Origin: Actinomycetota bacterium
GTDB taxonomy: Bacteria; Actinomycetota; Humimicrobiia; Humimicrobiales; Humimicrobiaceae
Reading direction: 5' to 3'
Assembly (NCBI GenBank): GCA_014360385.1
Contig: JACIXO010000001.1
Location: forward strand, 1 to 28,750
DNA length: 28,750 nt
This document shows, one piece after another, positions 1 through 12,669 of the stretch; positions within the stretch are counted from its first letter, which is position 1, and each line of letters begins with the position of its first letter. The notes under the pieces are model-generated. The model was not told where the DNA came from. It made no database searches and saw nothing but the letters and a program-made list of their open reading frames with translations. The position numbers were made by a program, and so were the translations under genes.

Positions 1-10
1 TAACTTTCAT
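1..10 (-). CDS. 5' end of a gene running off the left edge (M-K-V...), product unknown; could be a further BMC-locus gene
   Basis: ATG at 10-8 on the minus strand (ATG AAA GTT), preceded by duplicated AGAGGA purine tracts, 77 nt downstream of the EutN/CcmL stop. Only 3 codons are visible. Confidence 0.3.
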
Positions 11-31
11 TCCTCTAAAATTCCTCTAAAA
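10..31. repeat. 11-bp tandem duplication (ttcctctaaaa x2), followed by degenerate 14- and 9-bp period repeats to about position 62
   Basis: Read directly: 10-20 and 21-31 are identical. Confidence 0.85.
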
Positions 32-87
32 TACTTTCCCTAAAATACCTATTCTACCTATTTGGATTTAGTATATTATATTTAAGT

Positions 88-360
88 TCACTTTACTATA
101 TTTACTTTATCAATAATAGCAACAATAGTAGCATCAGTCGGGACATCCTCGCCATCAAATGCCCAGGTTGCTTCCATTCCATCTTCATAACCAACCAGGT
201 CCCCTATGCTTGAAGATGTAACATCTAAAGCCACAAGAAAACTCCCAACATCATTCCCGGTTTCCATATCTACTGGCTGGATTATCTGAATTTTCTTCCC
301 TTCCAGGCCTTTATATTTCATGGTAGAGATTACTTTTCCGATAACTCTTGCATAAAACAT
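88..360 (-). CDS. EutN/CcmL family bacterial microcompartment vertex (pentamer, BMC-P) protein
   Basis: 90 aa. N-terminal 'ARVIGKVISTMK', 'VALD....IGDLV' and C-terminal 'P.DATIVAIID' match the Pfam EutN_CcmL pattern. AAGGT SD-like sequence upstream. Confidence 0.9.
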   Translation of the reverse strand: MFYARVIGKVISTMKYKGLEGKKIQIIQPVDMETGNDVGSFLVALDVTSSSIGDLVGYEDGMEATWAFDGEDVPTDATIVAIIDKVNIVK

Positions 361-502
361 ATATACCTTACCTTGTGTCTTAAAAATGTCTATTATGGAT
401 GTGCCTTTATATTACAAGATGCACCTTATCCATCTCTTACTACCGTGCTTAACTTCACAGCCACTCTTTTCCAGTAATGCCATAAACCAGATTAACAGAA
501 TC

Positions 503-536
503 AGTCAGGCTTTGCAAGATATTGCAGAGCCTGACT
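503..536. other. 15-bp stem hairpin (agtcaggctttgcaa-gata-ttgcagagcctgact) in the fhs-ccmL spacer
   Basis: Arms are complementary with one G-U (plus strand) or C-A (minus strand) position. Confidence 0.7.
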
Positions 537-538
537 AT

Positions 539-567
539 AAAACTTGCCTGTGCCCGGGCATAGCAAG
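539..567 (-). terminator. Possible intrinsic terminator downstream of fhs
   Basis: Minus strand CTTGCTATGC-CCGG-GCACAGGCAAG followed by TTTT, about 45 nt after the fhs stop. The stem is imperfect and the U-tract short. Confidence 0.4.
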
Positions 568-610
568 CATCATAATAAGAATCTAAAAAGCATATGGACA
601 AGATTTTTTA

Positions 611-2308
611 CTAGAAAAGTCCCACTACATTTCCATTTTCATCAATATCTACTTTGGTTCCAGCGGGAACTTTGGGAAGCCCGGGCATTGTTCTCATTTC
701 ACCCAAAAGTGGATACAAAAAGCCTGCTCCCACTGAGGCTCTGACATCCCTTATTGGAACTCTAAACCCTCTGGGCCTACCTTTAAGGTTGGGGTCATGA
801 CTCAAAGAAAGATGGGTCTTAGCCATGCAGATTGGAAGCTTATCAAAACCCTGCTTTGTATATAGCTCAATTTTCTGTTCAGCCAGAGGTAGATAATCAA
901 CTCCATCTGCTCCATATATCTTTGTGGCGATAGTCTCTATTTTCTTTTTGATCGGCCACTCTAAGGGATAAAGAAACTTAAATTCACTCGGTTTTTCAGC
1001 AGCCTTTACAACTGCCTCAGCAAGCTCTATTCCACCTTCCCCGCCTTTTTCCCATACCTTGCTAACCACTGCATCTTCAGCACCTGCAGCTATAGCTCTT
1101 TCTTTTATTACCTCAATTTCTTCCTGTGTATCAGCATAGAAATGATTTATAGCAACGACTACAGGAACTCCAAAAAGCTTCATGTTTTCGATCATTTTCT
1201 CTAAGTTTTCACAGCCTTTTCTAACAGCTTCCACATTTGGCTTCTCCATAAGCTCCTTGTCCACAGCCTGTCCAGGAACAAAGTCAAAGCCACCACCATG
1301 CATCTTTAGAGCCCTTACAGTACAGACTATAACTACAGCATTTGGCTTAAGACCACTGTACCTGCATTTTATATTCATAAATTTCTCAGCGCCGCAGTCT
1401 GCACCAAATCCACTCTCAGTAACCACAAAATCTGCTAGCTTTATAGCTATTAAATCTGCAAGAATTGAACTATTTCCATGTGCAATATTAGCAAAAGGAC
1501 CTGCATGAACGAAGCATGCAGTATGTTCTATAGTTTGAAGCAAATTAGGCTTTATGGCATCCTTAAGCAGCACTGTCATAGCGCCTGCGCATTTTAAATC
1601 TTCAGCAGTAACAGGCTTACCACTACGTGTAGACCCTACAACCATTCTACCAAGTCTTTGCCTTAAATCTTTAAGACTAGTAGTGAGAGCAAGGATTGCC
1701 ATGACCTCAGAAGCTACTGTAATATCAAATCCGGTTTCTCTGGGAATTCCATTTTGTGGACCTCCCAGCCCTATAATGATATTTCTCAAAGCTCTATCAC
1801 TTATGTCCACAACTCTATTCAAAGTTATACTAAATGGATCTATGTCAAGTTCATTACCTTTCATAAGATGGGTATCAAGAAAAGCTGCAAGAAGATTATG
1901 AGCAGCACCTACAGCGTGGTTATCACCAGTTAAATGAAGATTAAAATCCTCCATTGGAAGAACCTGTGAATATCCTCCTCCCGCAGCTCCTCCTTTTATC
2001 CCGAATACAGGTCCAAGAGAGGGCTGCCTTATACAGGTGATAGTCTTTTTGCCTATTTTATTGAGGGCCATGCTCAAACCAATAGTGGTAACAGTCTTTC
2101 CCTCCCCAAGAGGTGTGGGAGTAATTGCGGTAACATCGATATATTTTCCGTTGGGTCTATCCTTAAATTTATCAAGAACTTCAAGCTTTACTTTTGCCTT
2201 GTAATTTCCATAAAGTTCTAAGTCTTCCTCATTCAGACCTATGGACTGGGCTATTTCTACAATGTGCTTCATTTTAGCAGCTTGAGCAATTTCAAGGTCG
2301 CTTTTCAC
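611..2308 (-). CDS. fhs: Formate--tetrahydrofolate ligase
   Basis: 565 aa. 'MKSDLEIAQ', '[13 protein letters not shown]', '[19 protein letters not shown]', '[11 protein letters not shown]', 'TMPGLPK' motifs. GTG start with AGGAG SD. Confidence 0.98.
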
Positions 2309-2362: not shown

Positions 2363-3709
2363 TCATGAAGAAACATATTCCCTTAGAAACCTCGGAACTT
2401 CCCCTGCTTCTCTCGGTCCTACAACAACTTTCCACTCATTACCAAGTTCATCTTCCAGCTCCCCCTGAAGCTGTGCCACATATCCAGGAATTACTAAACT
2501 TCTATGTTTAACTTTGTTCTCTATACCGCTTCTTTTAATAAATTTTGCTATCTCTTCAGGAACAAATTTCCCTGCAGCCCACGCAGTAAGAACTGACTGG
2601 CCTTCCACATTCATAACCAGGAGCCAGGAAGGGACTTTGCTGTTCTCTACTTCACCTGAGATTATAAAATATGTGAGAGAAAAATTGGTAGTAATCAAAA
2701 CTGGGGAATCTTCATTGGGGCTACCGATTTCGTATACTTTTTCTTCAACCTGCATTGGTTGTCTTGGATCAGTGTAGATATTTTGTCTATAGACTAAAAG
2801 AGGATAAATGTTTTGAGGACTGGGATTAGCTAAAACTATTATAGAACCATATTTAGCCACAAAAATGGATGCAATAAGAGCTTCCTTTAAGGGATTGTCA
2901 GTCATTTCGCATGGGAATACTATTGTGGGATATCCAAGAAGTCTATTTTTCTTTTTAATAGCAGCCGCTCGAAGAGCAATCTGGTTGTAGAAGTCTTCCT
3001 TAAGATTTCTTGAACCTATATCTATAACTAAATTTTTTATTCCTGCATTACGCATCTTTTCAGTGACTTCCATAATTTCGGTAAAAGATTTTCCCCTAAC
3101 TACTATTGGGCATCCTGTGCTTTTACCTATATTAATAAATTCATCAACACTGGCTGTATCTGCACCATGTAGAAGAGGCTTTTTCTCTTTTAATTTATCA
3201 CCAATAACCTTTAGAGTCTCAACATCAGAAGACACAAAAATAAGAGGTTTCTTGGTAAGTGAGCTTACCTTTTCAGAAACCTTGATAAACTTATCTCTGT
3301 TATTAGATTTATTTCTTACACAAATGGCATCTATTTTCAAAATCTGGCCAACTCTTTCATACTTGAGGCTCTCAATCTTTTTTACTCTCTCATCAACATC
3401 ATCCATGTCATCGTCAATAGTTATTGCAAAGGCATTAGGGTTAACAAACGTTCTTTCATGTCTGAACATTACAGTTTCTTCACCGACTTTAAACTGCTCT
3501 TCCCCTGCCCCAACTTCCACTTTTAAAATTGGAGGCTGGGAAGCCTCAGCAAGCTCAGCTTTGGCTTCTTCAGAGACATGCGGACATTTTTCCAGCTCAA
3601 CCTTTCCTGCAGCAAGCTGCATAGCAAAAGCAAGACACGTAGGAAACCCGCAATCCTTGCAGTTAGTTTTAGGAAGTCTTTTAAATATATCCAGACCACT
3701 TAAAGCCAT
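2363..3709 (-). CDS. acsC: Corrinoid iron-sulfur protein large (gamma) subunit
   Basis: 448 aa. N-terminal 4Fe-4S motif 'LPKTNCKDCGFPTCLAFA...C', 'YTDPRQP', 'TTNFSLTYF', 'SVLTAWAAGKF', 'GPREA'. AGGAG SD. Confidence 0.97.
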   Translation of the reverse strand: MALSGLDIFKRLPKTNCKDCGFPTCLAFAMQLAAGKVELEKCPHVSEEAKAELAEASQPPILKVEVGAGEEQFKVGEETVMFRHERTFVNPNAFAITIDDDMDDVDERVKKIESLKYERVGQILKIDAICVRNKSNNRDKFIKVSEKVSSLTKKPLIFVSSDVETLKVIGDKLKEKKPLLHGADTASVDEFINIGKSTGCPIVVRGKSFTEIMEVTEKMRNAGIKNLVIDIGSRNLKEDFYNQIALRAAAIKKKNRLLGYPTIVFPCEMTDNPLKEALIASIFVAKYGSIIVLANPSPQNIYPLLVYRQNIYTDPRQPMQVEEKVYEIGSPNEDSPVLITTNFSLTYFIISGEVENSKVPSWLLVMNVEGQSVLTAWAAGKFVPEEIAKFIKRSGIENKVKHRSLVIPGYVAQLQGELEDELGNEWKVVVGPREAGEVPRFLREYVSS

Positions 3710-3839
3710 AAATCACACTCCTTTTTAAGTCCTTATATATCAAATTCATTACATATCTTATAGCATACATTGACTTTCTTTTGTAAGTTTATAGCATTAT
3801 CTGCTATCTTTTCCCTTATATGTCTTATAGTATCTTTTA

Positions 3840-3861
3840 GCTTGTATATTGCTTGTATATA
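3840..3861. repeat. 11-bp period tandem duplication (gcttgtatat)
   Basis: Read directly in the acsB-acsC spacer. Confidence 0.75.
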
Positions 3862-3905
3862 TTGACTTAATTTCCAAATCTGCTTAAGAGGCTATTCTTA
3901 TATTT

Positions 3906-3955
3906 TTCCTACATTATTACTTTTTCTACATTCCTACATTATTACTTTTTCTACA
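3906..3955. repeat. 25-bp perfect tandem duplication covering the acsB stop codon
   Basis: ttcctacattattactttttctaca at 3906-3930 and 3931-3955. Confidence 0.9.
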
Positions 3956-6131
3956 TTATTGGCTCCATCTCCAGAGCAGGATGTCCCACCTTCTGCATCC
4001 ACTCAAGAACCTCCTCTTCGGTCTCGGCTTCTTCTTCAGTTGCAATCTTATCCACAAAATCAGGAATCCCGATTTCCCTGGCTCGCTGTTCAAGCAAATC
4101 TCTTATCTCCTCCTTTAACTCCTTAGGCATCCATACCAGCCTCTTAAGGCCACCATCTGCTCTTATAAATTTTCGCGAGCCGATGAAGAACTTACTAACC
4201 CCGATAAATCCAGGAGTCTGAATACCACCCCCAACCGATCCCGCAAGAGTCGAGAACTTCATTCCACAAGGAGTCATCCCCGGGTATTCTCTGTTGACAG
4301 CCATCACACCATTCGTCATAGGCAGTATAGCCACAATCACCTCAAAACACCCACAGGATGTCATCGGGTTAACAATCATTGAATAAGCTGAAAAAGATTC
4401 CAGAGTCTGGTTTGATGCCCTGTAAACGAACTCGTTTACACCCCTCCAGATACCCAGGGTCTCATCTATTGTCTCACCTTTCTTTATAGGCTGGTTAGGG
4501 CCTGTGGGATTTATCTCATAGCTAGCCTTACAGTCAAGCCAGTTATATGCTCCACAAAGTCCGGACCTTTCTGGAGAGACAACACACACATGGTTTGGAG
4601 CAAAAGACTGACAAAGAGTACAGGAATAGAAAGTATCTACAGATTCGTCTGTTAAGGTTCCCAGTCTTTCATCCCTCGTTCTAAAAATTTCTCTTGCCCT
4701 TCTTCTTAAGGCCGAGACATCTTCAGGATTGGTATAAATTTTTACCTGAACTTTATCCATTATATTACCAAACTGGGAATGCATTTTGGCATGAAGAATG
4801 GTGCCTATGTGTCTTATTTTAAATCCACTTTTAACCGCGTCTTTACTGAATCTGACCCAGGGAATATCCCTCTGACCCATATGAAAAACTCCTGAGGCAT
4901 AGTTCAAGAAATAATGTATTTGCCTTTCCATAACAGGTTCAAAGTCCTGCTGCATTTTTCTTCCTGCAACTTCTACCAATACCCCAAGTGGAAGAACACT
5001 TCCTTCTTCCACATCATCAACTTCGGGACCAAAAACCTCAATTTTTCCATCTTCTACCTCAGAGGGATCTACCATCACAAGCAGTTCCACTGCCTCGCTC
5101 TTATTACCCCCAAACTCGACATAGGTATTTTCCTTTCTCACCCTTTCTCCTTCAAATGCGGGTCCAAACGGAACTGGGACATCTACTTTGTCAACCGTTA
5201 TCTTAAGACCTCTTACTTCTATAGCCTTTGATACAATCTCCTCATCTGGAATATTTGAAACCACATGTTCATACGTACATATACCTCGAGGCAATATTTC
5301 GGGGATGGGAGTATCAGCAATAGTAGGAAAACCAAAGCTTATTGCACCTGCAGCATTAGCATATTTTTCCTCGTCAACTTCTCCTAAAGCAAGAACAAAT
5401 GCAAAAACTCTGTTCTTATTGTAGAGAAGCATTCTCCTTCCATCACCTGGCTGAACTCCACCAAAGCTCATAGCTGCTCTTGCTGCAAAGCCAAGAGAGT
5501 AAACAGTTGCACTGATATCTTTACCAAACGGGACAAGTCTTGTATCCCAACCAAGGTCTACCCCCTCCTCTGCTAATTGTTCAGCCATTGATTTTCCATC
5601 AGTAGAAGCACTCATAAAAACGTAAATATTTTTTTCCTGTAGCTCTCTTGCAATTCTAACTGCAGTTTTATTGTCTTTACATGCTCCTACACACGCTGCA
5701 AAACCTGGTGCAGTTCCATCCACAAATTCTATTCCTCTTTCTCTTATAATCACATCTGAGGCTGCACCGAGCCATATTCCTTCAACAGGAGATGGTCCAT
5801 CTATGTATTTTATTGCCTCTATTATCTCCTCCGCCCACAGCGTTGCAATTCCTGCATCAAGCGCAGCTCCAAGATAAGGTAGCCACACCCTATCACTTGG
5901 AACAGGTGGCAGCAATTTTTTGGCTTCTTCAATCACTATCTCTGCGTCAGCCAGCTTTTCCACTTTTATACCTGTCATGCTATATATGATAGGAAGATAA
6001 TATGCAGTATCAGGGAACTCAAGTTTTTGGTCCCTGCCATGCTTTTCTATGCAAGTTTTGAGAGTCTTCTCAGCTCTTTCTACAATCTTATAAGCACCTC
6101 TTATGGCACTTGACGCAATTATCTTAGACAT
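3951..6131 (-). CDS. acsB: Acetyl-CoA synthase (CODH/ACS complex, bacterial type with N-terminal domain)
   Basis: 726 aa. A-cluster ligands 'YSCTLCQSFAPNHVCVVSPERSGLCG' and 'PMTSCGCFE', 'GFIGVSK'. N-terminal 'FPDTAYYLP' domain. Confidence 0.98.
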   Translation of the reverse strand: MSKIIASSAIRGAYKIVERAEKTLKTCIEKHGRDQKLEFPDTAYYLPIIYSMTGIKVEKLADAEIVIEEAKKLLPPVPSDRVWLPYLGAALDAGIATLWAEEIIEAIKYIDGPSPVEGIWLGAASDVIIRERGIEFVDGTAPGFAACVGACKDNKTAVRIARELQEKNIYVFMSASTDGKSMAEQLAEEGVDLGWDTRLVPFGKDISATVYSLGFAARAAMSFGGVQPGDGRRMLLYNKNRVFAFVLALGEVDEEKYANAAGAISFGFPTIADTPIPEILPRGICTYEHVVSNIPDEEIVSKAIEVRGLKITVDKVDVPVPFGPAFEGERVRKENTYVEFGGNKSEAVELLVMVDPSEVEDGKIEVFGPEVDDVEEGSVLPLGVLVEVAGRKMQQDFEPVMERQIHYFLNYASGVFHMGQRDIPWVRFSKDAVKSGFKIRHIGTILHAKMHSQFGNIMDKVQVKIYTNPEDVSALRRRAREIFRTRDERLGTLTDESVDTFYSCTLCQSFAPNHVCVVSPERSGLCGAYNWLDCKASYEINPTGPNQPIKKGETIDETLGIWRGVNEFVYRASNQTLESFSAYSMIVNPMTSCGCFEVIVAILPMTNGVMAVNREYPGMTPCGMKFSTLAGSVGGGIQTPGFIGVSKFFIGSRKFIRADGGLKRLVWMPKELKEEIRDLLEQRAREIGIPDFVDKIATEEEAETEEEVLEWMQKVGHPALEMEPIM

Positions 6132-8121
6132 CTTTTAAAGCCCTCCTTGCCTCCATGTCAAATAGAACCCTCTCTTTCTTAACATCGATCTTTAATGCCT
6201 TCCTCCTGGATTGAATGTGCTCTATTACTTTATTGAGAACTTCATTTATATTGGAAACATATTCTAGTCTTCCGCCATATTTTTCTTCCCATTTTCTTGT
6301 CATTATATCCTTTACTTCCTCACTTGACTCTACAGGTATGGGCTCACCACTAAACACGACGTAAACTCCGGAAGCTGCAAAATAAGTGCCAATGGATAGT
6401 GCTTTTTCGCTCATCCACTCAGGTGCAATACCAGCCACCGGAAGATCACTTATGTCTTCCCCAAGCCCTCCTTCCTCTACTACTTCAGACAGAACTGTAA
6501 GTATCCTCGAATTATCAACACAGGAACCAAGGTGTAAAACAGGAGGTATTCCAACTGCTTCACATATTGATTTAAGCCCTTCTCCAGCATATTCCATAGC
6601 TTCGGGAATCATTACGCCACATTTAGCTGAAGCCAGTGCTCCACAACCTGTCTGAACTACTAAATAGTCTCTCTTTATTAACTCTCTGGTCAGGAAATTA
6701 TGATATCTGTCCTGAGTCAATCTTGCGTTATTGCAACCTACTATAGCTACCACACCCTGGATTCTGCCATCTATAATAGCATCATTAAGTGGCCTAAATG
6801 ATTCTCTAAACCTGCCACCCAGCATATATCTTATGTACTCATGTGAAAATCCAGCTACAAGATCTGATGTTATCTCTGGAATGTGAACCCTTTCTTTCCT
6901 GTTTCCAAAATTGTCTATTGCCATTTTGATTATCTGTCTTGCTATATCTACACCCTTCTCTTCTTCAAACTCCATATGAATTGCCCCAGGGATTTTACAT
7001 TTTGCTGAAGAAGTTACAAGCTTGGTATGATATTTCTTCGCAAGTTCACCCAGAGCCTGCATTATACACTGAATGTCAACAACCATAAGCTCTACCGCAC
7101 CGGTAGCTATAGCCATTTCCTGAGATAGAAAATTTCCAATCGGAGCTATGCCCTGTCGCATCAGCACCTCATTTGCTGTACAACAGATCCCAACCACATT
7201 GATACCATTAGCACCTTTGCTTTTAGCATATTCTACAAGTTCTTTATCATCCGAAAGCTCCGCGATAATCTCCGATAGAGTAGGCTCGTGACCGTGAACT
7301 ACAATATTCACCTCGTCTTTCTTCAACATTCCAAGATTGGTTTTTGCAGGAAGCGCTTGTGGAGTTGTGAAAAGGATGTCAGTAATCTCAGTAGCTATCA
7401 TAGAGCCTCCCCATCCGTCAGAAAGAGCAGTCCTTACAGCCTGGTCTAAAATATGTTCAGCATCCTGGTCAACCCCCATGTGGGTTCTATGCATAAGCTC
7501 GACCACTTCTCTGTCCACACCACGAGGAACTACCTTATTCTTTCTCCATATTTCCTGCCTCTTTTTAGGAGCTATGTTTATTAGATCTATTTCCCCTTCC
7601 TGCTGACCAAATAAGGAAAGAGCCTTTTTGGCAGTATCTATAGCTATATCTTTTGTATCTCTATCACCTATCTCTATTCCAAGATTTTTGGCAAACTTTA
7701 AAAGTTTTAATTCATCTTTAATCATAAGCCCCTGTGCCTTCCCCTCTGCTACCTGGCCTAATAAATGAGCTAAATCTCTACCGTGATCAGAATGAGCAGA
7801 AGCTCCAGCAGCAATGTGTCGGGCAAGGTTTCTTGCTGCTATTGTTCCAAGAGTTGCACCACAAAGACCAGTTTTGTCTTCTCTTACCCTGCATGGACCC
7901 ATAGCACAGTTTTTACAACAAATACCAGAAATCCCGGAACCAATGGGGCATGGCTTCATCTGTTTGGCTCTATCAAAAACAGTGCAAATCCCTTCAGACT
8001 CAACACACTCCAGAAGTTCAAGTATAGCTCTATCCTCACTTACCATATCACTTACCATATCAGAGTAACTTTGCGTTTCAGAACCAGGATTATTTTCCTT
8101 CTCTTTTTTATCATTGCTCAT
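6124..8121 (-). CDS. cooS: Anaerobic Ni-Fe carbon monoxide dehydrogenase catalytic subunit, ACS-associated
   Basis: 665 aa. B/D-cluster 'C..G....GICCKNCAMGPC', C-cluster ligands 'HGHEP', 'ICCTANE', 'DIQC', 'GCNN', 'TGCG', 'GSCVDN', Lys in 'MSEKA'. Overlaps the acsB start by 8 nt. Confidence 0.97.
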   Translation of the reverse strand: MSNDKKEKENNPGSETQSYSDMVSDMVSEDRAILELLECVESEGICTVFDRAKQMKPCPIGSGISGICCKNCAMGPCRVREDKTGLCGATLGTIAARNLARHIAAGASAHSDHGRDLAHLLGQVAEGKAQGLMIKDELKLLKFAKNLGIEIGDRDTKDIAIDTAKKALSLFGQQEGEIDLINIAPKKRQEIWRKNKVVPRGVDREVVELMHRTHMGVDQDAEHILDQAVRTALSDGWGGSMIATEITDILFTTPQALPAKTNLGMLKKDEVNIVVHGHEPTLSEIIAELSDDKELVEYAKSKGANGINVVGICCTANEVLMRQGIAPIGNFLSQEMAIATGAVELMVVDIQCIMQALGELAKKYHTKLVTSSAKCKIPGAIHMEFEEEKGVDIARQIIKMAIDNFGNRKERVHIPEITSDLVAGFSHEYIRYMLGGRFRESFRPLNDAIIDGRIQGVVAIVGCNNARLTQDRYHNFLTRELIKRDYLVVQTGCGALASAKCGVMIPEAMEYAGEGLKSICEAVGIPPVLHLGSCVDNSRILTVLSEVVEEGGLGEDISDLPVAGIAPEWMSEKALSIGTYFAASGVYVVFSGEPIPVESSEEVKDIMTRKWEEKYGGRLEYVSNINEVLNKVIEHIQSRRKALKIDVKKERVLFDMEARRALKDV
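8036..8062. repeat. 12-bp in-frame tandem duplication in the cooS 5' end (SDMV-SDMV)
   Basis: tcacttaccata x2. Confidence 0.85.
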
Positions 8122-8276
8122 TATTCTAACACCACCCTCCCGTTATTATTCTCCGTTCTTCTTATAACTTCCCACAGAATTATTTGCTACAAAATTGATA
8201 GCTACTTTCATGTGATTCATAATGGTTTCTGTTCTCAGTTTGACATACTATTAATGCCCTGGTGGTCTAGCCTTCT

Positions 8277-9218
8277 TTAAAGGAGCTCTTTTATTATCTC
8301 TTTTACCAGACTAACTGCTTTTGGATGTCTCATTACCAGAATATCAGCTCCAGCTATAAGCATACTCATAGCTGATATTGCTTCCCAATTTACTCCTCGC
8401 TCCTCAAGATCACCCCACTCCGGATATCGCTCCTCACTTTCTCTTACTTCTTTAACCTTCCATACTTCAGGAGCTAAATTACATATGATAGGCATCTGGG
8501 TCATTTTATCATCCTGCAAAAGCGCAGCAATTCTCAATCTCTCCATAGCAGAATAGCAATACTCAATACCATATCCAAGACTGGAAGTTGAAGGATCCAT
8601 AACTATCCGGTCCGGAGGAAGCCCAAGCTGAGTTAAAAGTATATTTAGCTGCTTTGCTATATTTACATCCAGGGGATTTAAAGCTATGACATTATTATTA
8701 TATCCCATAGCTGCAGCAGCAATTGTTTTATAGTTCTCTTCTTCAGCCCATCCAATCAGAATGCTTGTGTCAGCATTTTTTTCTGACACCTTTTTCATTA
8801 CTTCAGCCACATTTTCCAGAGAGCCTGCACCATATACAATAAGGGGTTTACTTATAGCTTCTCTAACTTTTTTTGTAAGTTCTGCAGCCTCCTCTGGTTT
8901 CATGTCTCCAACATCAGGATTTGTACTAACGAGTTGAAGACATATGGCCTCTGCTCCAAACTCATCAATACATTTCTTAGCCCATTTTACCGGATCATCA
9001 TAAACATCCCTATAATACTTATCTACACTTTCTGGCCATCCCTTTGGCCTGCTGTCATATACCTCAATTGCTATTATTGGTTTGTTCGGGATCTCACCTT
9101 CAAAAGTATGAAATGGTAGAGCAGTCTCACCCCCTACTTTTACCTCTAGATCTCCCTTGCCCAATTTAACTGTATTTATCTTGCCTGTGTATTCATTTTT
9201 TGGAACTTGAAATTCCAA
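8277..9218 (-). CDS. acsD: Corrinoid iron-sulfur protein small (delta) subunit
   Basis: 313 aa. 'VGGETALPF..FEG', 'YGIEY.YS.MER.R.AAL..DDKM.QMP', 'GADIL.MRHP'. TTG start with AGGAGG SD. Confidence 0.96.
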   Translation of the reverse strand: MEFQVPKNEYTGKINTVKLGKGDLEVKVGGETALPFHTFEGEIPNKPIIAIEVYDSRPKGWPESVDKYYRDVYDDPVKWAKKCIDEFGAEAICLQLVSTNPDVGDMKPEEAAELTKKVREAISKPLIVYGAGSLENVAEVMKKVSEKNADTSILIGWAEEENYKTIAAAAMGYNNNVIALNPLDVNIAKQLNILLTQLGLPPDRIVMDPSTSSLGYGIEYCYSAMERLRIAALLQDDKMTQMPIICNLAPEVWKVKEVRESEERYPEWGDLEERGVNWEAISAMSMLIAGADILVMRHPKAVSLVKEIIKELL

Positions 9219-9269
9219 CCTCTCCTCCTTTTTGTAACTTAACCTTTTAACTTAGCTTTTATGGTATTG

Positions 9270-9299
9270 TTGATTTAGAAATCAAGATTTAGAAATCAA
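9270..9299. promoter_or_regulatory. Palindrome TTGATTT-AG-AAATCAA, tandemly duplicated (14-bp unit gatttagaaatcaa x2); candidate regulator site upstream of acsD
   Basis: Sequence is seen directly; function is inferred only from its position 50-80 nt upstream of acsD. Confidence 0.35.
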
Positions 9300-9482
9300 G
9301 GCTGCCTAAAATTTTATTTTTTGGTTTCTGGCAATAAATCACCCACGCATATAAAACTTATTAATATAGATTTTATTCAAAGCTCTGCTTGAGAACCTTA
9401 TTTCTTTTAGCTACTTGACTAACCAGGAGATAGTTATCTTGCCGCCAATTATTAGCTCTATGCAATAAAACACAATTACGCT

Positions 9483-9491
9483 ATTGTAACA
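9483..9491 (-). promoter_or_regulatory. Candidate extended -10 promoter (TGtTACAAT) for acsD-cooS-acsB
   Basis: TGn + TACAAT on the minus strand in the 380-bp cooC-acsD spacer. No good -35. Confidence 0.35.
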
Positions 9492-9597
9492 TTTTTGCAC
9501 AAACTTTGCATTAAATTTACCGAGTTTTGGCACATCTTTCCCTTATCTTCTTTTACCAATATAACTTTAGTTCTGGCTTTTTAACCCATGGCTAAAT

Positions 9598-10392
9598 TTA
9601 ACCCTTCTTCAACCAATCTCCCTTTAACTCTCCAATTTCAGAAACTAACTTCCTCACAAAACATTTTACCTGAGTTAATGCAATGCTATTCGAGGGAAGA
9701 TCAAATATGCTTTCACCTGAAAGATCCATCTCAGATATGCTTGCGTCCAAATTTACACAAGAAAGAATCTCGAGTCCGGTCTTCTTTATAGATTCGATAA
9801 GCTTTACATCCAGTTCTGAATTTACTCTGTTAACAATGAGAAGAATTCTCCCAATCTTAAGTTTTAACTCCAAAGCTAGGTCTCTGATTCGTGACGCTGT
9901 AAGTATTCCCTTAGGAGAGAAATCAGAAACTATAAGAAGAAAATCTATATCTCTGGTCGTCCTTCTGCTTAAGTGCTCCATTCCAGCCTCATTATCCATA
10001 ACTACCCAGTTATAATTTTCCTGAAGCACATCTATATACTTTCGGAAAAGGGTATTGGCATAACAATAGCACCCAGGTCCTTCACCTCTCCCCATAGCCA
10101 ACAAATCAAATCCATTACCTTCCACAAGAGCCTGATGGATATTCATTTCCACAATCTGGTCCTTATACATCCCTTTTGAATAACGAGGAGCATCCCTCTT
10201 AAATTCCTCTCTCAAGGACCCTACGGTTTTCGTAATCTTGACCCCCAAAACCTCATTAAGATTTGAATTGGGGTCAGCATCAAGAGCTAATACTGGAGTT
10301 TTTCCCTCTTCTATCAGACTTCTAATTATAAGAGCACATAGAGTAGTTTTTCCTGTTCCACCCTTTCCTGCTAAAGCTACACTTATACTCAA
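9598..10392 (-). CDS. cooC: CooC/AcsF-type nickel-insertion ATPase for CODH/ACS maturation
   Basis: 264 aa. Deviant Walker A 'GKGGTGKTT', 'DADPNSNL', metal-binding 'GPGCYC', 'DNEAGMEHLSR'. TTG start with AGGAG SD. Confidence 0.93.
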   Translation of the reverse strand: MSISVALAGKGGTGKTTLCALIIRSLIEEGKTPVLALDADPNSNLNEVLGVKITKTVGSLREEFKRDAPRYSKGMYKDQIVEMNIHQALVEGNGFDLLAMGRGEGPGCYCYANTLFRKYIDVLQENYNWVVMDNEAGMEHLSRRTTRDIDFLLIVSDFSPKGILTASRIRDLALELKLKIGRILLIVNRVNSELDVKLIESIKKTGLEILSCVNLDASISEMDLSGESIFDLPSNSIALTQVKCFVRKLVSEIGELKGDWLKKG

Positions 10393-10394
10393 AG

Positions 10395-12350
10395 CTATCT
10401 CCTATCTCTTCCTCTCAAATTGTTCATCGAATATATAAGCTCTTCCACGGTAGGAAAGTCCTTTAAGTCTGTATATGGCAAAAAAAGACCAGCCACATAT
10501 CTATCCATGAACTTCATGTTTACACTTAATTCGATATATGTAATTTTATTCGCAATCTCCAGACTCTTCTTGTACTTTTCCTCAGAAAGTAAGCTAAGAT
10601 AAGCTCCAGTCACCGAAGTATTTCCCAAAAAATGGTATTTACTTATATCTATGTCCGGAAGCATGCCTATAACAATTGCGTTTCGAATGTTTAAATGTTT
10701 TCCAAGTCCACCAGCTATATAGATTCTGTCAAGGTCATAAACGTTTAAATCAACCTCCTCTAAAAGTGTCTTAATTCCCGCATAAATAGCAGCCTTGGCT
10801 CTCATCAGATTATTGATATCGACCTCACTTATAAATATAGATTTACCTGTGGCACTATCCCTGGCATCTACAATAATATACCTTAAATCTCCATCAACAC
10901 ATTCAAGATATCTGTTTCCTATATCTCTATTAAATTTGCCCTTTCTATCTATAACACCTTTAAGATACATTTCACCAATGATATCAATTAGTCCAGACCC
11001 ACAGATTCCCCTGGGCTTACCTCCTCCAATCACTTCGACCTCACATTTATAAGTCTCTTCATCTATCCATACTTTCTCGATAGCACCATCAACCGCCCTT
11101 ATCCCACACTTAACTCCTCCGCCCTCAAAAGCAGGGCCAGCAGAACAGGAGCATCCCATCATCCACTCCGAGTTTCCCACTACAAGCTCTCCATTAGTAC
11201 CCAGATCTAAAAATAAGGTTAATTCTTTCTGACAGGCCATGTCTGTAGCCAGAACCCCTGAAGTAATGTCACTGCCAAGATAGCTTGCTACACCTTTCAT
11301 ACTGTAAACCATTGCATTTCTTATATGTTTTATTCCAACCTCTTCGGCTGTTGAATTTGGAAATCTATTAGCCACTGTGACATAAGGTTCCTCTCGTATA
11401 TACCTGGGCGGAACACCATAGAAAAGATGCATCATGGTAGAATTGCCAGCTACCACAACAGATACAATACTATCAGGATCAACACCGCTATCGAGAAGTA
11501 AATTCCATATTAAACTATTCAGGCAGTCCACCACTACTTCTCTAAGCTTATTCAATCCTTCCTTTCTGGTAGAATATACTATCCTATTTATAATATCTTC
11601 CCCAAACTTTATCTGGGGGTTATATTCAGACGCAACGCTCAAGATATCCCCATTTTCAAGATCAACAAGATACAGGACAAGGGTAGTGGTTCCAATATCA
11701 ATAGCTATTCCATAACATTTCCTGTCAACTTCTCCTGCCTGGATATCTATTAATGTTCTGTTCCACTTATCCACAGTAACTGTAACTGTCCAGTTCTTTT
11801 CTCTCAATACATTTGGCAGAATTCTCATGATGTGAATTGGAACAACACAATCCTCTATTCCCAAGCTTTCCTTGATAGCCTTCTGCAACCTAAATAGGTC
11901 GCTCGTGCCATAGCTAAAAGATGGCTTCTCCACTTTCAACCATTCTTTAACTATCCAGGGCTTTACCTCTATCGAAGAAAACTCTCTTTTGCTTATCCCA
12001 GCATAAATTTTGGATGGTCTTTCTCCCAGCTCTCCCTTTTCTATTTTACCCTTCTGCTTCACCCTTTCTGGAACATATACAACCAGATCGCTCTTTACCC
12101 TCGCCTGGCAGGAAAGAACAAACCCATTTTCTTTTTCTTTCTTGCTTATAAATTTGGGGAAGTCTTTGGTTTCTACAGTACCCTCTATTATCTGAACTAC
12201 ACATCTTCCGCAGGTACCAGCTCCGCCACAGGAGGAGTCTATATCCAGTCCACAGTCAAGAATGGCCTGCCTGAGATTATAGTTGGGATCTATAGTAATA
12301 GACTTGTTGCTGGGAAGAAACTTTATGAAATATTTCTTCACTCTATTCAT
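10395..12350 (-). CDS. acsV: Reductive activator of corrinoid Fe-S protein (RACo/AcsV; 2Fe-2S ferredoxin + ASKHA ATPase, DUF4445)
   Basis: N-terminal 'CGGAGTCGRC...LSCQ' 2Fe-2S domain, 'IDIGTTT', 'DLGTNGE', 'SAGPAFEG', 'GICGSG', 'IAGGLG'. Start placed at the ATG at 12350 (MNRVKK); the ORF is open to a TTG at 12416. Confidence 0.93.
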   Translation of the reverse strand: MNRVKKYFIKFLPSNKSITIDPNYNLRQAILDCGLDIDSSCGGAGTCGRCVVQIIEGTVETKDFPKFISKKEKENGFVLSCQARVKSDLVVYVPERVKQKGKIEKGELGERPSKIYAGISKREFSSIEVKPWIVKEWLKVEKPSFSYGTSDLFRLQKAIKESLGIEDCVVPIHIMRILPNVLREKNWTVTVTVDKWNRTLIDIQAGEVDRKCYGIAIDIGTTTLVLYLVDLENGDILSVASEYNPQIKFGEDIINRIVYSTRKEGLNKLREVVVDCLNSLIWNLLLDSGVDPDSIVSVVVAGNSTMMHLFYGVPPRYIREEPYVTVANRFPNSTAEEVGIKHIRNAMVYSMKGVASYLGSDITSGVLATDMACQKELTLFLDLGTNGELVVGNSEWMMGCSCSAGPAFEGGGVKCGIRAVDGAIEKVWIDEETYKCEVEVIGGGKPRGICGSGLIDIIGEMYLKGVIDRKGKFNRDIGNRYLECVDGDLRYIIVDARDSATGKSIFISEVDINNLMRAKAAIYAGIKTLLEEVDLNVYDLDRIYIAGGLGKHLNIRNAIVIGMLPDIDISKYHFLGNTSVTGAYLSLLSEEKYKKSLEIANKITYIELSVNMKFMDRYVAGLFLPYTDLKDFPTVEELIYSMNNLRGRDRR

Positions 12351-12669
12351 TATGAAGATTGAGATTTTTACAAAGGTACAGATTTTCAGGTATTTCCTTC
12401 TAGGAAGTTGCCTCAAAAATTATATTATATGCGACTCCAAAAATCAAAGACATAGACTTACCCCGATAACGTGGAGTTTTTTACATCTTTAGAAAGCATC
12501 TCTTTTTCTCGGGATAGGAAAACAAACTACTGGATCAGGATGGGCGTTAAGAAAACAGTTTGAAGGCGAAGTGGGCATGGAATTGGAGATGCTTTCATAC
12601 CTTTACATTTTATATTTTTATATTTTTTATACTTTTTATGCAATTTATTACTCCTCGTGTATTCTTTAT

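Follow-up and report, generated by a model that had tools for sequence, protein, structure and literature searches.

The stretch of DNA analysed here, referred to as the window, consists of the first 28,750 bases of contig C1 of a metagenome-assembled genome (MAG) of 465 contigs (90% complete, 3.2% contamination), and position 1 of the window is the end of that contig. Between positions 1 and 16000 every gene lies on the minus strand, with the following order of features:

1..87, minus strand: spacer between EutN_A and EutN_B; at 10-31 the ribosome-binding region is repeated in tandem (11-nt unit)
88..360, minus strand: EutN_A, gene for a BMC-P vertex (pentamer) protein (PF03319 match)
361..610, minus strand: intergenic region from fhs to EutN_A, exactly 250 bp (from the sequence)
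611..2308, minus strand: fhs, formate-tetrahydrofolate ligase, 565 aa, without terminal extension (PF01268, E 8e-269)
2363..12416, minus strand: CODH/ACS cluster, upstream of fhs (Pfam matches), with the six genes below
2363-3709, minus strand: CFeSP subunit (Pfam match)
3951-6131, minus strand: AcsB (Pfam match)
6124-8121, minus strand: CODH (Pfam match)
8277-9218, minus strand: second CFeSP subunit (Pfam match)
9598-10392, minus strand: CooC (Pfam match)
10395-12416, minus strand: RACo activase (Pfam match)
17-286 of contig C60 of the same genome: EutN_B, second BMC-P gene, starting just past the C1 end (BMC-P match)

EutN_A is a genuine gene for a microcompartment (BMC) corner protein. Its product of 90 aa is a single PF03319 domain, within the 85-100 aa expected for BMC-P vertex proteins, and a profile search matched it to the EutN_CcmL family over the full length (E 6.4e-21; score 75.1 bits, cut-off 25; the match runs from position 1 to position 83 of the 83-position profile). 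Its nearest solved relatives in the PDB are the BMC-P pentamers 5v74 (E 9e-8), 2qw7 and 4i7a, which come from a Haliangium shell and from carboxysomes, and from its similarity to these EutN_A is predicted to form pentamers closing the vertices of a shell. Of the four BMC-P paralogs in its genome EutN_A comes first, its reading frame is intact in 37 of 37 family genomes, and its dN/dS across these genomes is about 0.05-0.15 (with dS saturated); the pair of EutN_A and EutN_B is under purifying selection. An earlier reading of the window, the original prediction, had placed an EutN/CcmL gene 250 bp past fhs on the same strand and downstream of a CODH/ACS-fhs cluster, and this is borne out by the profile match, by the measured gap and by the Pfam matches at 2363-12416, in which the CFeSP subunits are the corrinoid-protein subunits. 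The Pfam match of Fhs itself spans residues 2-565.

Two hairpins separate fhs from EutN_A, as had been predicted. The one nearest fhs (542-568) is followed by UUUU and is terminator-like, the second (503-536) is perfect, and the spacer folds with z = -2.1. A consensus terminator scan did not flag these hairpins, and since they are visible by folding and by eye only, the name of terminator is one that we infer for them. No Rfam family came near the threshold when the spacer was compared with riboswitches and known RNAs, and neither a trace of folD nor any repeated element turned up within it, the spacer being single copy in the genome.

At the window edge a further gene does follow, although not from the MKV start that had been assigned to it. 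The ATG at window 10-8 lies in the ribosome-binding region of EutN_B and is out of frame ('ATGAAAG'), hence it was rejected as a gene start. The ends of C1 and C60 overlap by 15 nt; an exact k-mer overlap search from the C1 end found no join, and the junction was noticed on visual inspection; it was then borne out by Logan contigs (runs X1 and X4), which represent the source sample and a second oil-field sample and which bridge from window position 4 into the first codons of EutN_B. In these contigs EutN_B starts ATGGTACTTGGC..., translated MVLGKV, and is a BMC-P paralog, in line with the expectation that such paralogs commonly stand side by side. The junctions fhs-EutN_A-EutN_B thus recur in independent assemblies of two samples. 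Window positions 1-31 and C60 positions 1-16 carry tandem copies of a motif resembling a ribosome-binding site, TTTTAGAGGAA then GGAATGAAAG, whose copy number varies between samples, X4 having one extra 15-nt copy. Given that the contig break coincides with this repeat and that its copy number varies, the tandem repeat in the EutN_A-EutN_B spacer probably caused the break in C1. Sequencing runs containing this DNA are metagenomes of oil fields, and one of them, labelled metatranscriptomic, is probably DNA.

Beyond EutN_B, contig C60 carries a Fur-family gene between the BMC-P pair and folD, and the resulting order, fhs-EutN_A-EutN_B-Fur-folD, is reproduced in the assembly of the second sample. 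The same contig (L012) holds two folD copies, at 1421-2551 and 3350-4144, and the contig stops within the second, in a stretch that is protein-identical to the first; this doubling could reflect either a duplication or the assembly of mixed strains. The first copy (FolD_a) ends in a coiled-coil tail of 77 aa. The tail was considered as a targeting extension and rejected, as it occurs in no relative and the contig there has duplicated folD segments.

The distribution of these genes was followed in a sample of 80 genomes from 17 genera of the family. BMC-H and BMC-P genes co-occur in the same 12 of the 17 genera, and neither was found in genera g3, g5, g8, g13 and g16, where the CODH/ACS-fhs-folD genes stand without BMC-P genes behind them. 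An ortholog of EutN_A (61-80% identity) is present in 37 of the 80 genomes, spread over 12 genera, and is always followed by an ortholog of EutN_B. The adjacency to fhs, for which the original prediction had proposed a check in related genomes, is conserved: in 34 of the 37 genomes the ortholog lies just after fhs-folD, and the remaining three are cut by contig ends. Thirty-one genomes have it on the fhs contig and strand, 1.0-1.75 kb past fhs with folD in between, and in three further genomes, where a contig end intervenes, folD is directly upstream. The distance in the present genome is only 0.25 kb, and in no other genome does the BMC-P pair sit between fhs and folD.

What follows the pair differs among relatives. 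The main BMC locus begins about 1 kb after fhs-folD-EutN_A-EutN_B in L045 and L046, 2 kb after it in G005 and 4.7 kb after it in PWYO01, with a BlaI-like gene on the other strand in between, which agrees with the suggestion that EutN_A marks the edge of a BMC locus. In G003, G010, G013 and G014 unrelated genes come after the pair, and in genera g4, g11 and g14 the pair stays behind fhs-folD though the main locus is elsewhere. In G006 the main locus is present and the pair absent, only the other two BMC-P genes being there. The very stable position of the BMC-P pair behind fhs-folD can serve as a synteny marker of the clade.

Additional shell genes were noted in the family. In L057 (G021:C5) a tandem BMC-P satellite with four EutN matches and a BMC-H gene occupies 3799-5495, between gltX and a penicillin-binding-protein gene and near genes for a class II FBP aldolase, TIM, a split transketolase, RpiB and a SorC regulator. 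Genera g6, g10, g12, g14 and g17 include genomes in which 8-11 BMC-P genes were counted, and these genomes may hold a second, fragmented BMC.

The main BMC locus of the present genome is spread over three small contigs, in the order C204, C247 and C20, of which the last two are joined by an end overlap; C20 and C247 together give six matches to the BMC domain (PF00936), and the genome gives four BMC-P matches. Its genes, identified with Pfam and NCBIfam, are in order a DeoR regulator, two BMC-P genes, a PduS-like flavoprotein, a BMC-T, a class II aldolase, a BMC-H, PduL, a CoA-acylating AldDH, a second BMC-H and a second BMC-T. The DeoR regulator (PF00455 and PF08220) is on C204 directly before the two BMC-P genes, as in relatives. 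AldDH reached 529 bits with PRK15398/NF011927 (cut-off 403) and PduL 255 bits with PRK15070/NF011652 (cut-off 209). The signature enzyme of the locus is the class II aldolase (PF00596) on C247/C20, whose full-length ortholog of 289 aa (E 2e-47) is extended by about 90 aa, the last of which form an amphipathic helix. The aldolase falls below every NCBIfam equivalog cut-off, the best matches being 3-oxo-tetronate-4-phosphate decarboxylase and FucA. Short amphipathic helices resembling encapsulation peptides are found at the C-terminus of the aldolase and at the N-termini of AldDH and PduL. From DeoR to the last BMC-T, no alcohol or lactate dehydrogenase was seen in the contigs of this genome or in L046, L036 and L052, and neither RpiB nor DeoC was seen in the main locus. 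The components that the original prediction had proposed to look for further left, BMC-H and BMC-T, AldDH, PduL and a signature enzyme, were found on C204, C247 and C20, and the lack of BMC-H genes that it had named as a refutation is not observed, as BMC-H genes are present on C20 and C247.

Neighbors of the BMC locus in some relatives (L040 6628-9140; L052 5561-6847) include a CCG/4Fe-4S oxidoreductase with a partner of 435 aa, a butyrate-kinase-like gene, or the lactate racemase LarA, which hints at the handling of lactate or lactaldehyde.

Metabolosomes of the PVM and PVM-like kind, built on a class II aldolase, were reportedly treated by Erbilgin in 2014. The present locus is assigned to the PVM-like type from its Pfam content, and not by a published HMM classifier of BMC loci or shells; the supplementary files of the BMC catalogue have no entry for these MAGs. 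It shares with PVM and PVM-like loci the class II aldolase (PF00596) as signature with a targeting-like helix at its C-terminus, the acylating AldDH, PduL, the DeoR regulator, several BMC-P paralogs, an acyl kinase gene nearby in relatives and, across the family, a link to rhamnose genes. A class II aldolase is the signature of both PVM and PVM-like BMCs (PMC8217296, PMC4207490). It differs from PVM in having four BMC-P genes in two pairs where PVM has a triplet, and further in the PduS-like gene, in the lack of an alcohol or lactate dehydrogenase seen in the locus, in an uncultured, low-GC, anaerobic Actinomycetota host and in one BMC-P pair fixed behind fhs-folD; most PVM-like loci are, however, likewise without an alcohol or lactate dehydrogenase that recycles NAD+ (Axen 2014, PMC4207490). 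As for the isolated pair, satellite shell loci are common, and BMC-P satellites beside unrelated genes have been catalogued (Sutter 2021, PMC8217296). The pairs of the present genome and of g4, g11 and g14 fit this description, containing shell genes only and lying away from the main locus among unrelated genes, and Bacteroidetes MAGs have a related BMC-P pair beside GGDEF and sigma-70 genes. In contrast to such satellites, the neighbor folD is unusually constant here, and because the pair is 1-5 kb from the main locus in several relatives, it is rather the upstream edge of that locus.

The idea that the organelle is coupled to CODH/ACS and Fhs finds no support in the distribution of the two systems, which are independent of each other among genera, and the locus is that of a standard sugar-aldehyde metabolosome. 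AcsB was not found in the 17 genomes of the BMC-bearing genera g4 (0/6), g14 (0/3), g10 (0/6) and g7 (0/2), where the order fhs-folD-BMC-P-BMC-P persists, and it is present in the BMC-free genera g3, g5, g8, g13 and g16. A compartment confining C1 intermediates, as had been suggested, finds no counterpart in the proteins either: whether or not a genome carries BMC genes, Fhs and FolD are alike in length and termini, with no targeting-like helix and no BMC-specific extension, whereas three core enzymes of the metabolosome have one. The original prediction had itself named a standard sugar locus with its own promoter as the finding that would speak against coupling, and this largely describes the situation, the locus being of that kind and promoter-like -10 boxes occurring in relatives. 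Among the sequences upstream of EutN_A orthologs in L033-L046, many have a TATAAT-like box directly before the gene, 5-8 nt ahead of the ATG, and other relatives have a TGnTAAAAT box with a Shine-Dalgarno site, as judged by consensus match only; by the same measure L046 has a strong, clear terminator after folD. The position of the TATAAT boxes suggests that EutN_A transcripts in these relatives would be leaderless, and leaderless mRNAs are common in Actinobacteria. In several genomes the gap from folD to EutN_A is about 14-60 bp. A search of the literature on microcompartments in Actinobacteria with the Wood-Ljungdahl pathway gave nothing specific to this clade.

The presence of RhaA, on the other hand, does follow the organelle: it was found in 36 of 43 BMC-bearing and 6 of 37 BMC-free family genomes, counts in which kin are not independent. 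G014 (L051, G014:C3 8765-14545) has a lone BMC-H gene inside an L-rhamnose operon with the order FGGY kinase, RhaM, URO-D-like, RhaA, BMC-H and Zn-ADH. This genome (7 contigs, 91% complete) keeps the BMC-P pair and one BMC-H gene, and PduL and the BMC AldDH were not found in it; at G014:C2 582475-584552 its AcsB match is broken in two, one of the fragments containing a TGA, and its CODH/ACS is possibly decaying. Taken together, the independence of AcsB and BMC, the termini of Fhs and FolD, the promoter boxes, the tracking of RhaA and the BMC-H gene of G014 indicate an organelle for deoxy-sugar catabolism and not for C1 metabolism. RhaA was not found in the present genome (90% complete, 465 contigs), which makes rhamnose no more than a candidate substrate in this particular organism.

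In our view, then, EutN_A in all likelihood caps the vertices of a PVM-like class II aldolase metabolosome and stands beside fhs-folD by descent, a reading whose observed parts are the gene identities, the synteny, the distribution and the helices resembling targeting peptides. EutN_A would open a BMC-P cassette of two genes, which EutN_B completes, and the cassette would belong to a PVM-like metabolosome whose other genes are on other contigs of the genome. Within the shell the aldolase would cleave a deoxy-sugar phosphate, most likely rhamnulose- or fuculose-1-phosphate, to give DHAP and an aldehyde, for example lactaldehyde; AldDH would convert the aldehyde to acyl-CoA, PduL would make the acyl-phosphate and recycle CoA, and PduS would pass electrons out of the shell; substrate, assembly and transcription units are the parts that we infer. 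An ancestor of the BMC-bearing genera presumably acquired the gene set directly downstream of fhs-folD, the position being kept by descent, and rearrangements in some lineages, the present one included, would have left the BMC-P pair alone by fhs as a satellite locus. Some observations sit less easily with this account: the place of the pair behind fhs-folD is more persistent than that of a random neighbor (g4, g11 and g14), G014 has the pair and one BMC-H gene where the search found no PduL or BMC AldDH, the pair is absent from G006 in spite of its main locus, RhaA was not found in the present genome, and no alcohol dehydrogenase was seen in the locus.

The persistence of the pair behind fhs-folD is an argument for a real functional or regulatory coupling, in which the pair would be held there by a tie to the methyl branch of the Wood-Ljungdahl pathway or to the folate C1 pathway, linked through the supply of vertex protein or through the output of the organelle (reducing equivalents, formate or acyl-CoA). 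The adjacency in 34 of 37 genomes and 12 genera includes lineages with the main locus elsewhere, the folD-EutN_A gap is as short as stated above, and the pair of G014 is intact even though neither PduL nor the BMC AldDH was found in that genome. In Acetobacterium woodii a PDU-like BMC, an aldehyde-oxidising metabolosome in a Wood-Ljungdahl organism, performs oxidations that are known to feed electrons to the pathway (PMC7593272), and a flow of electrons from the BMC to the pathway is plausible in the present family. No gene-level link is described for A. woodii; the link here is positional only and persists in genera where AcsB was not found. We nevertheless regard coupling as improbable, given the persistence of the adjacency in g4, g14, g10 and g7, where AcsB was not found, the whole pathway cluster retained by BMC-free genera, the lack of a targeting extension on Fhs and FolD, the promoter-like -10 boxes directly before EutN_A and the terminator after folD in L046; moreover, all genomes are from one family, so that the conserved adjacency may be inheritance alone. 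A related thought is that the position of the pair is itself selected, because it is locked behind fhs-folD in at least 12 genera, also where the main locus has moved away and even in G014, with the expression of vertex protein, or a minimal shell that may consist of one BMC-H and two BMC-P proteins, tied to folate or C1 metabolism. It would mean that a metabolosome shell is connected, physically or through regulation, with the Wood-Ljungdahl methyl branch, and we hold it to be quite improbable.

Doubt may equally be directed at the kind of organelle or at the reality of the locus. The aldolase under the equivalog cut-offs, with 3-oxo-tetronate-4-phosphate decarboxylase and FucA as best matches, the combination of PduS and a kinase, which resembles the SPU-like description, and the failure to find RhaA in the own genome would all fit a BMC that likewise contains a class II aldolase but uses some other sugar phosphate, be it the SPU-like one of Latescibacteria or an undescribed subtype. 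No RpiB or DeoC was seen in the main locus, RhaA goes with the BMC family-wide and the rhamnose operon of G014 contains a BMC-H gene, and we therefore give this alternative only a slim chance. Least likely of all is that the pair is a roleless leftover of a split or lost locus, or that the neighborhood is an artefact of assembly or binning. A MAG of 465 contigs with 3.2% contamination, in which a contig ends right at the pair, invites such a suspicion, and G006 manages with the other two BMC-P genes alone; against this stand the intact reading frames in all 37 genomes and their low dN/dS, the junctions reproduced in the independent assemblies of two samples, and the same order on long contigs of many relatives.

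Hence an organelle confining CO or formate, tempting as such a claim is beside a CODH/ACS-fhs cluster, is unsupported here. The analysis instead describes a sugar microcompartment of the PVM-like kind that is carried by about half of the genera of an Actinomycetota family, uncultured, anaerobic and low in GC, whose habitats are oil fields, sediments and fens, and it points to the fermentation of deoxy-sugars (rhamnose or fucose) as a niche trait of these bacteria that is independent of acetogenesis.
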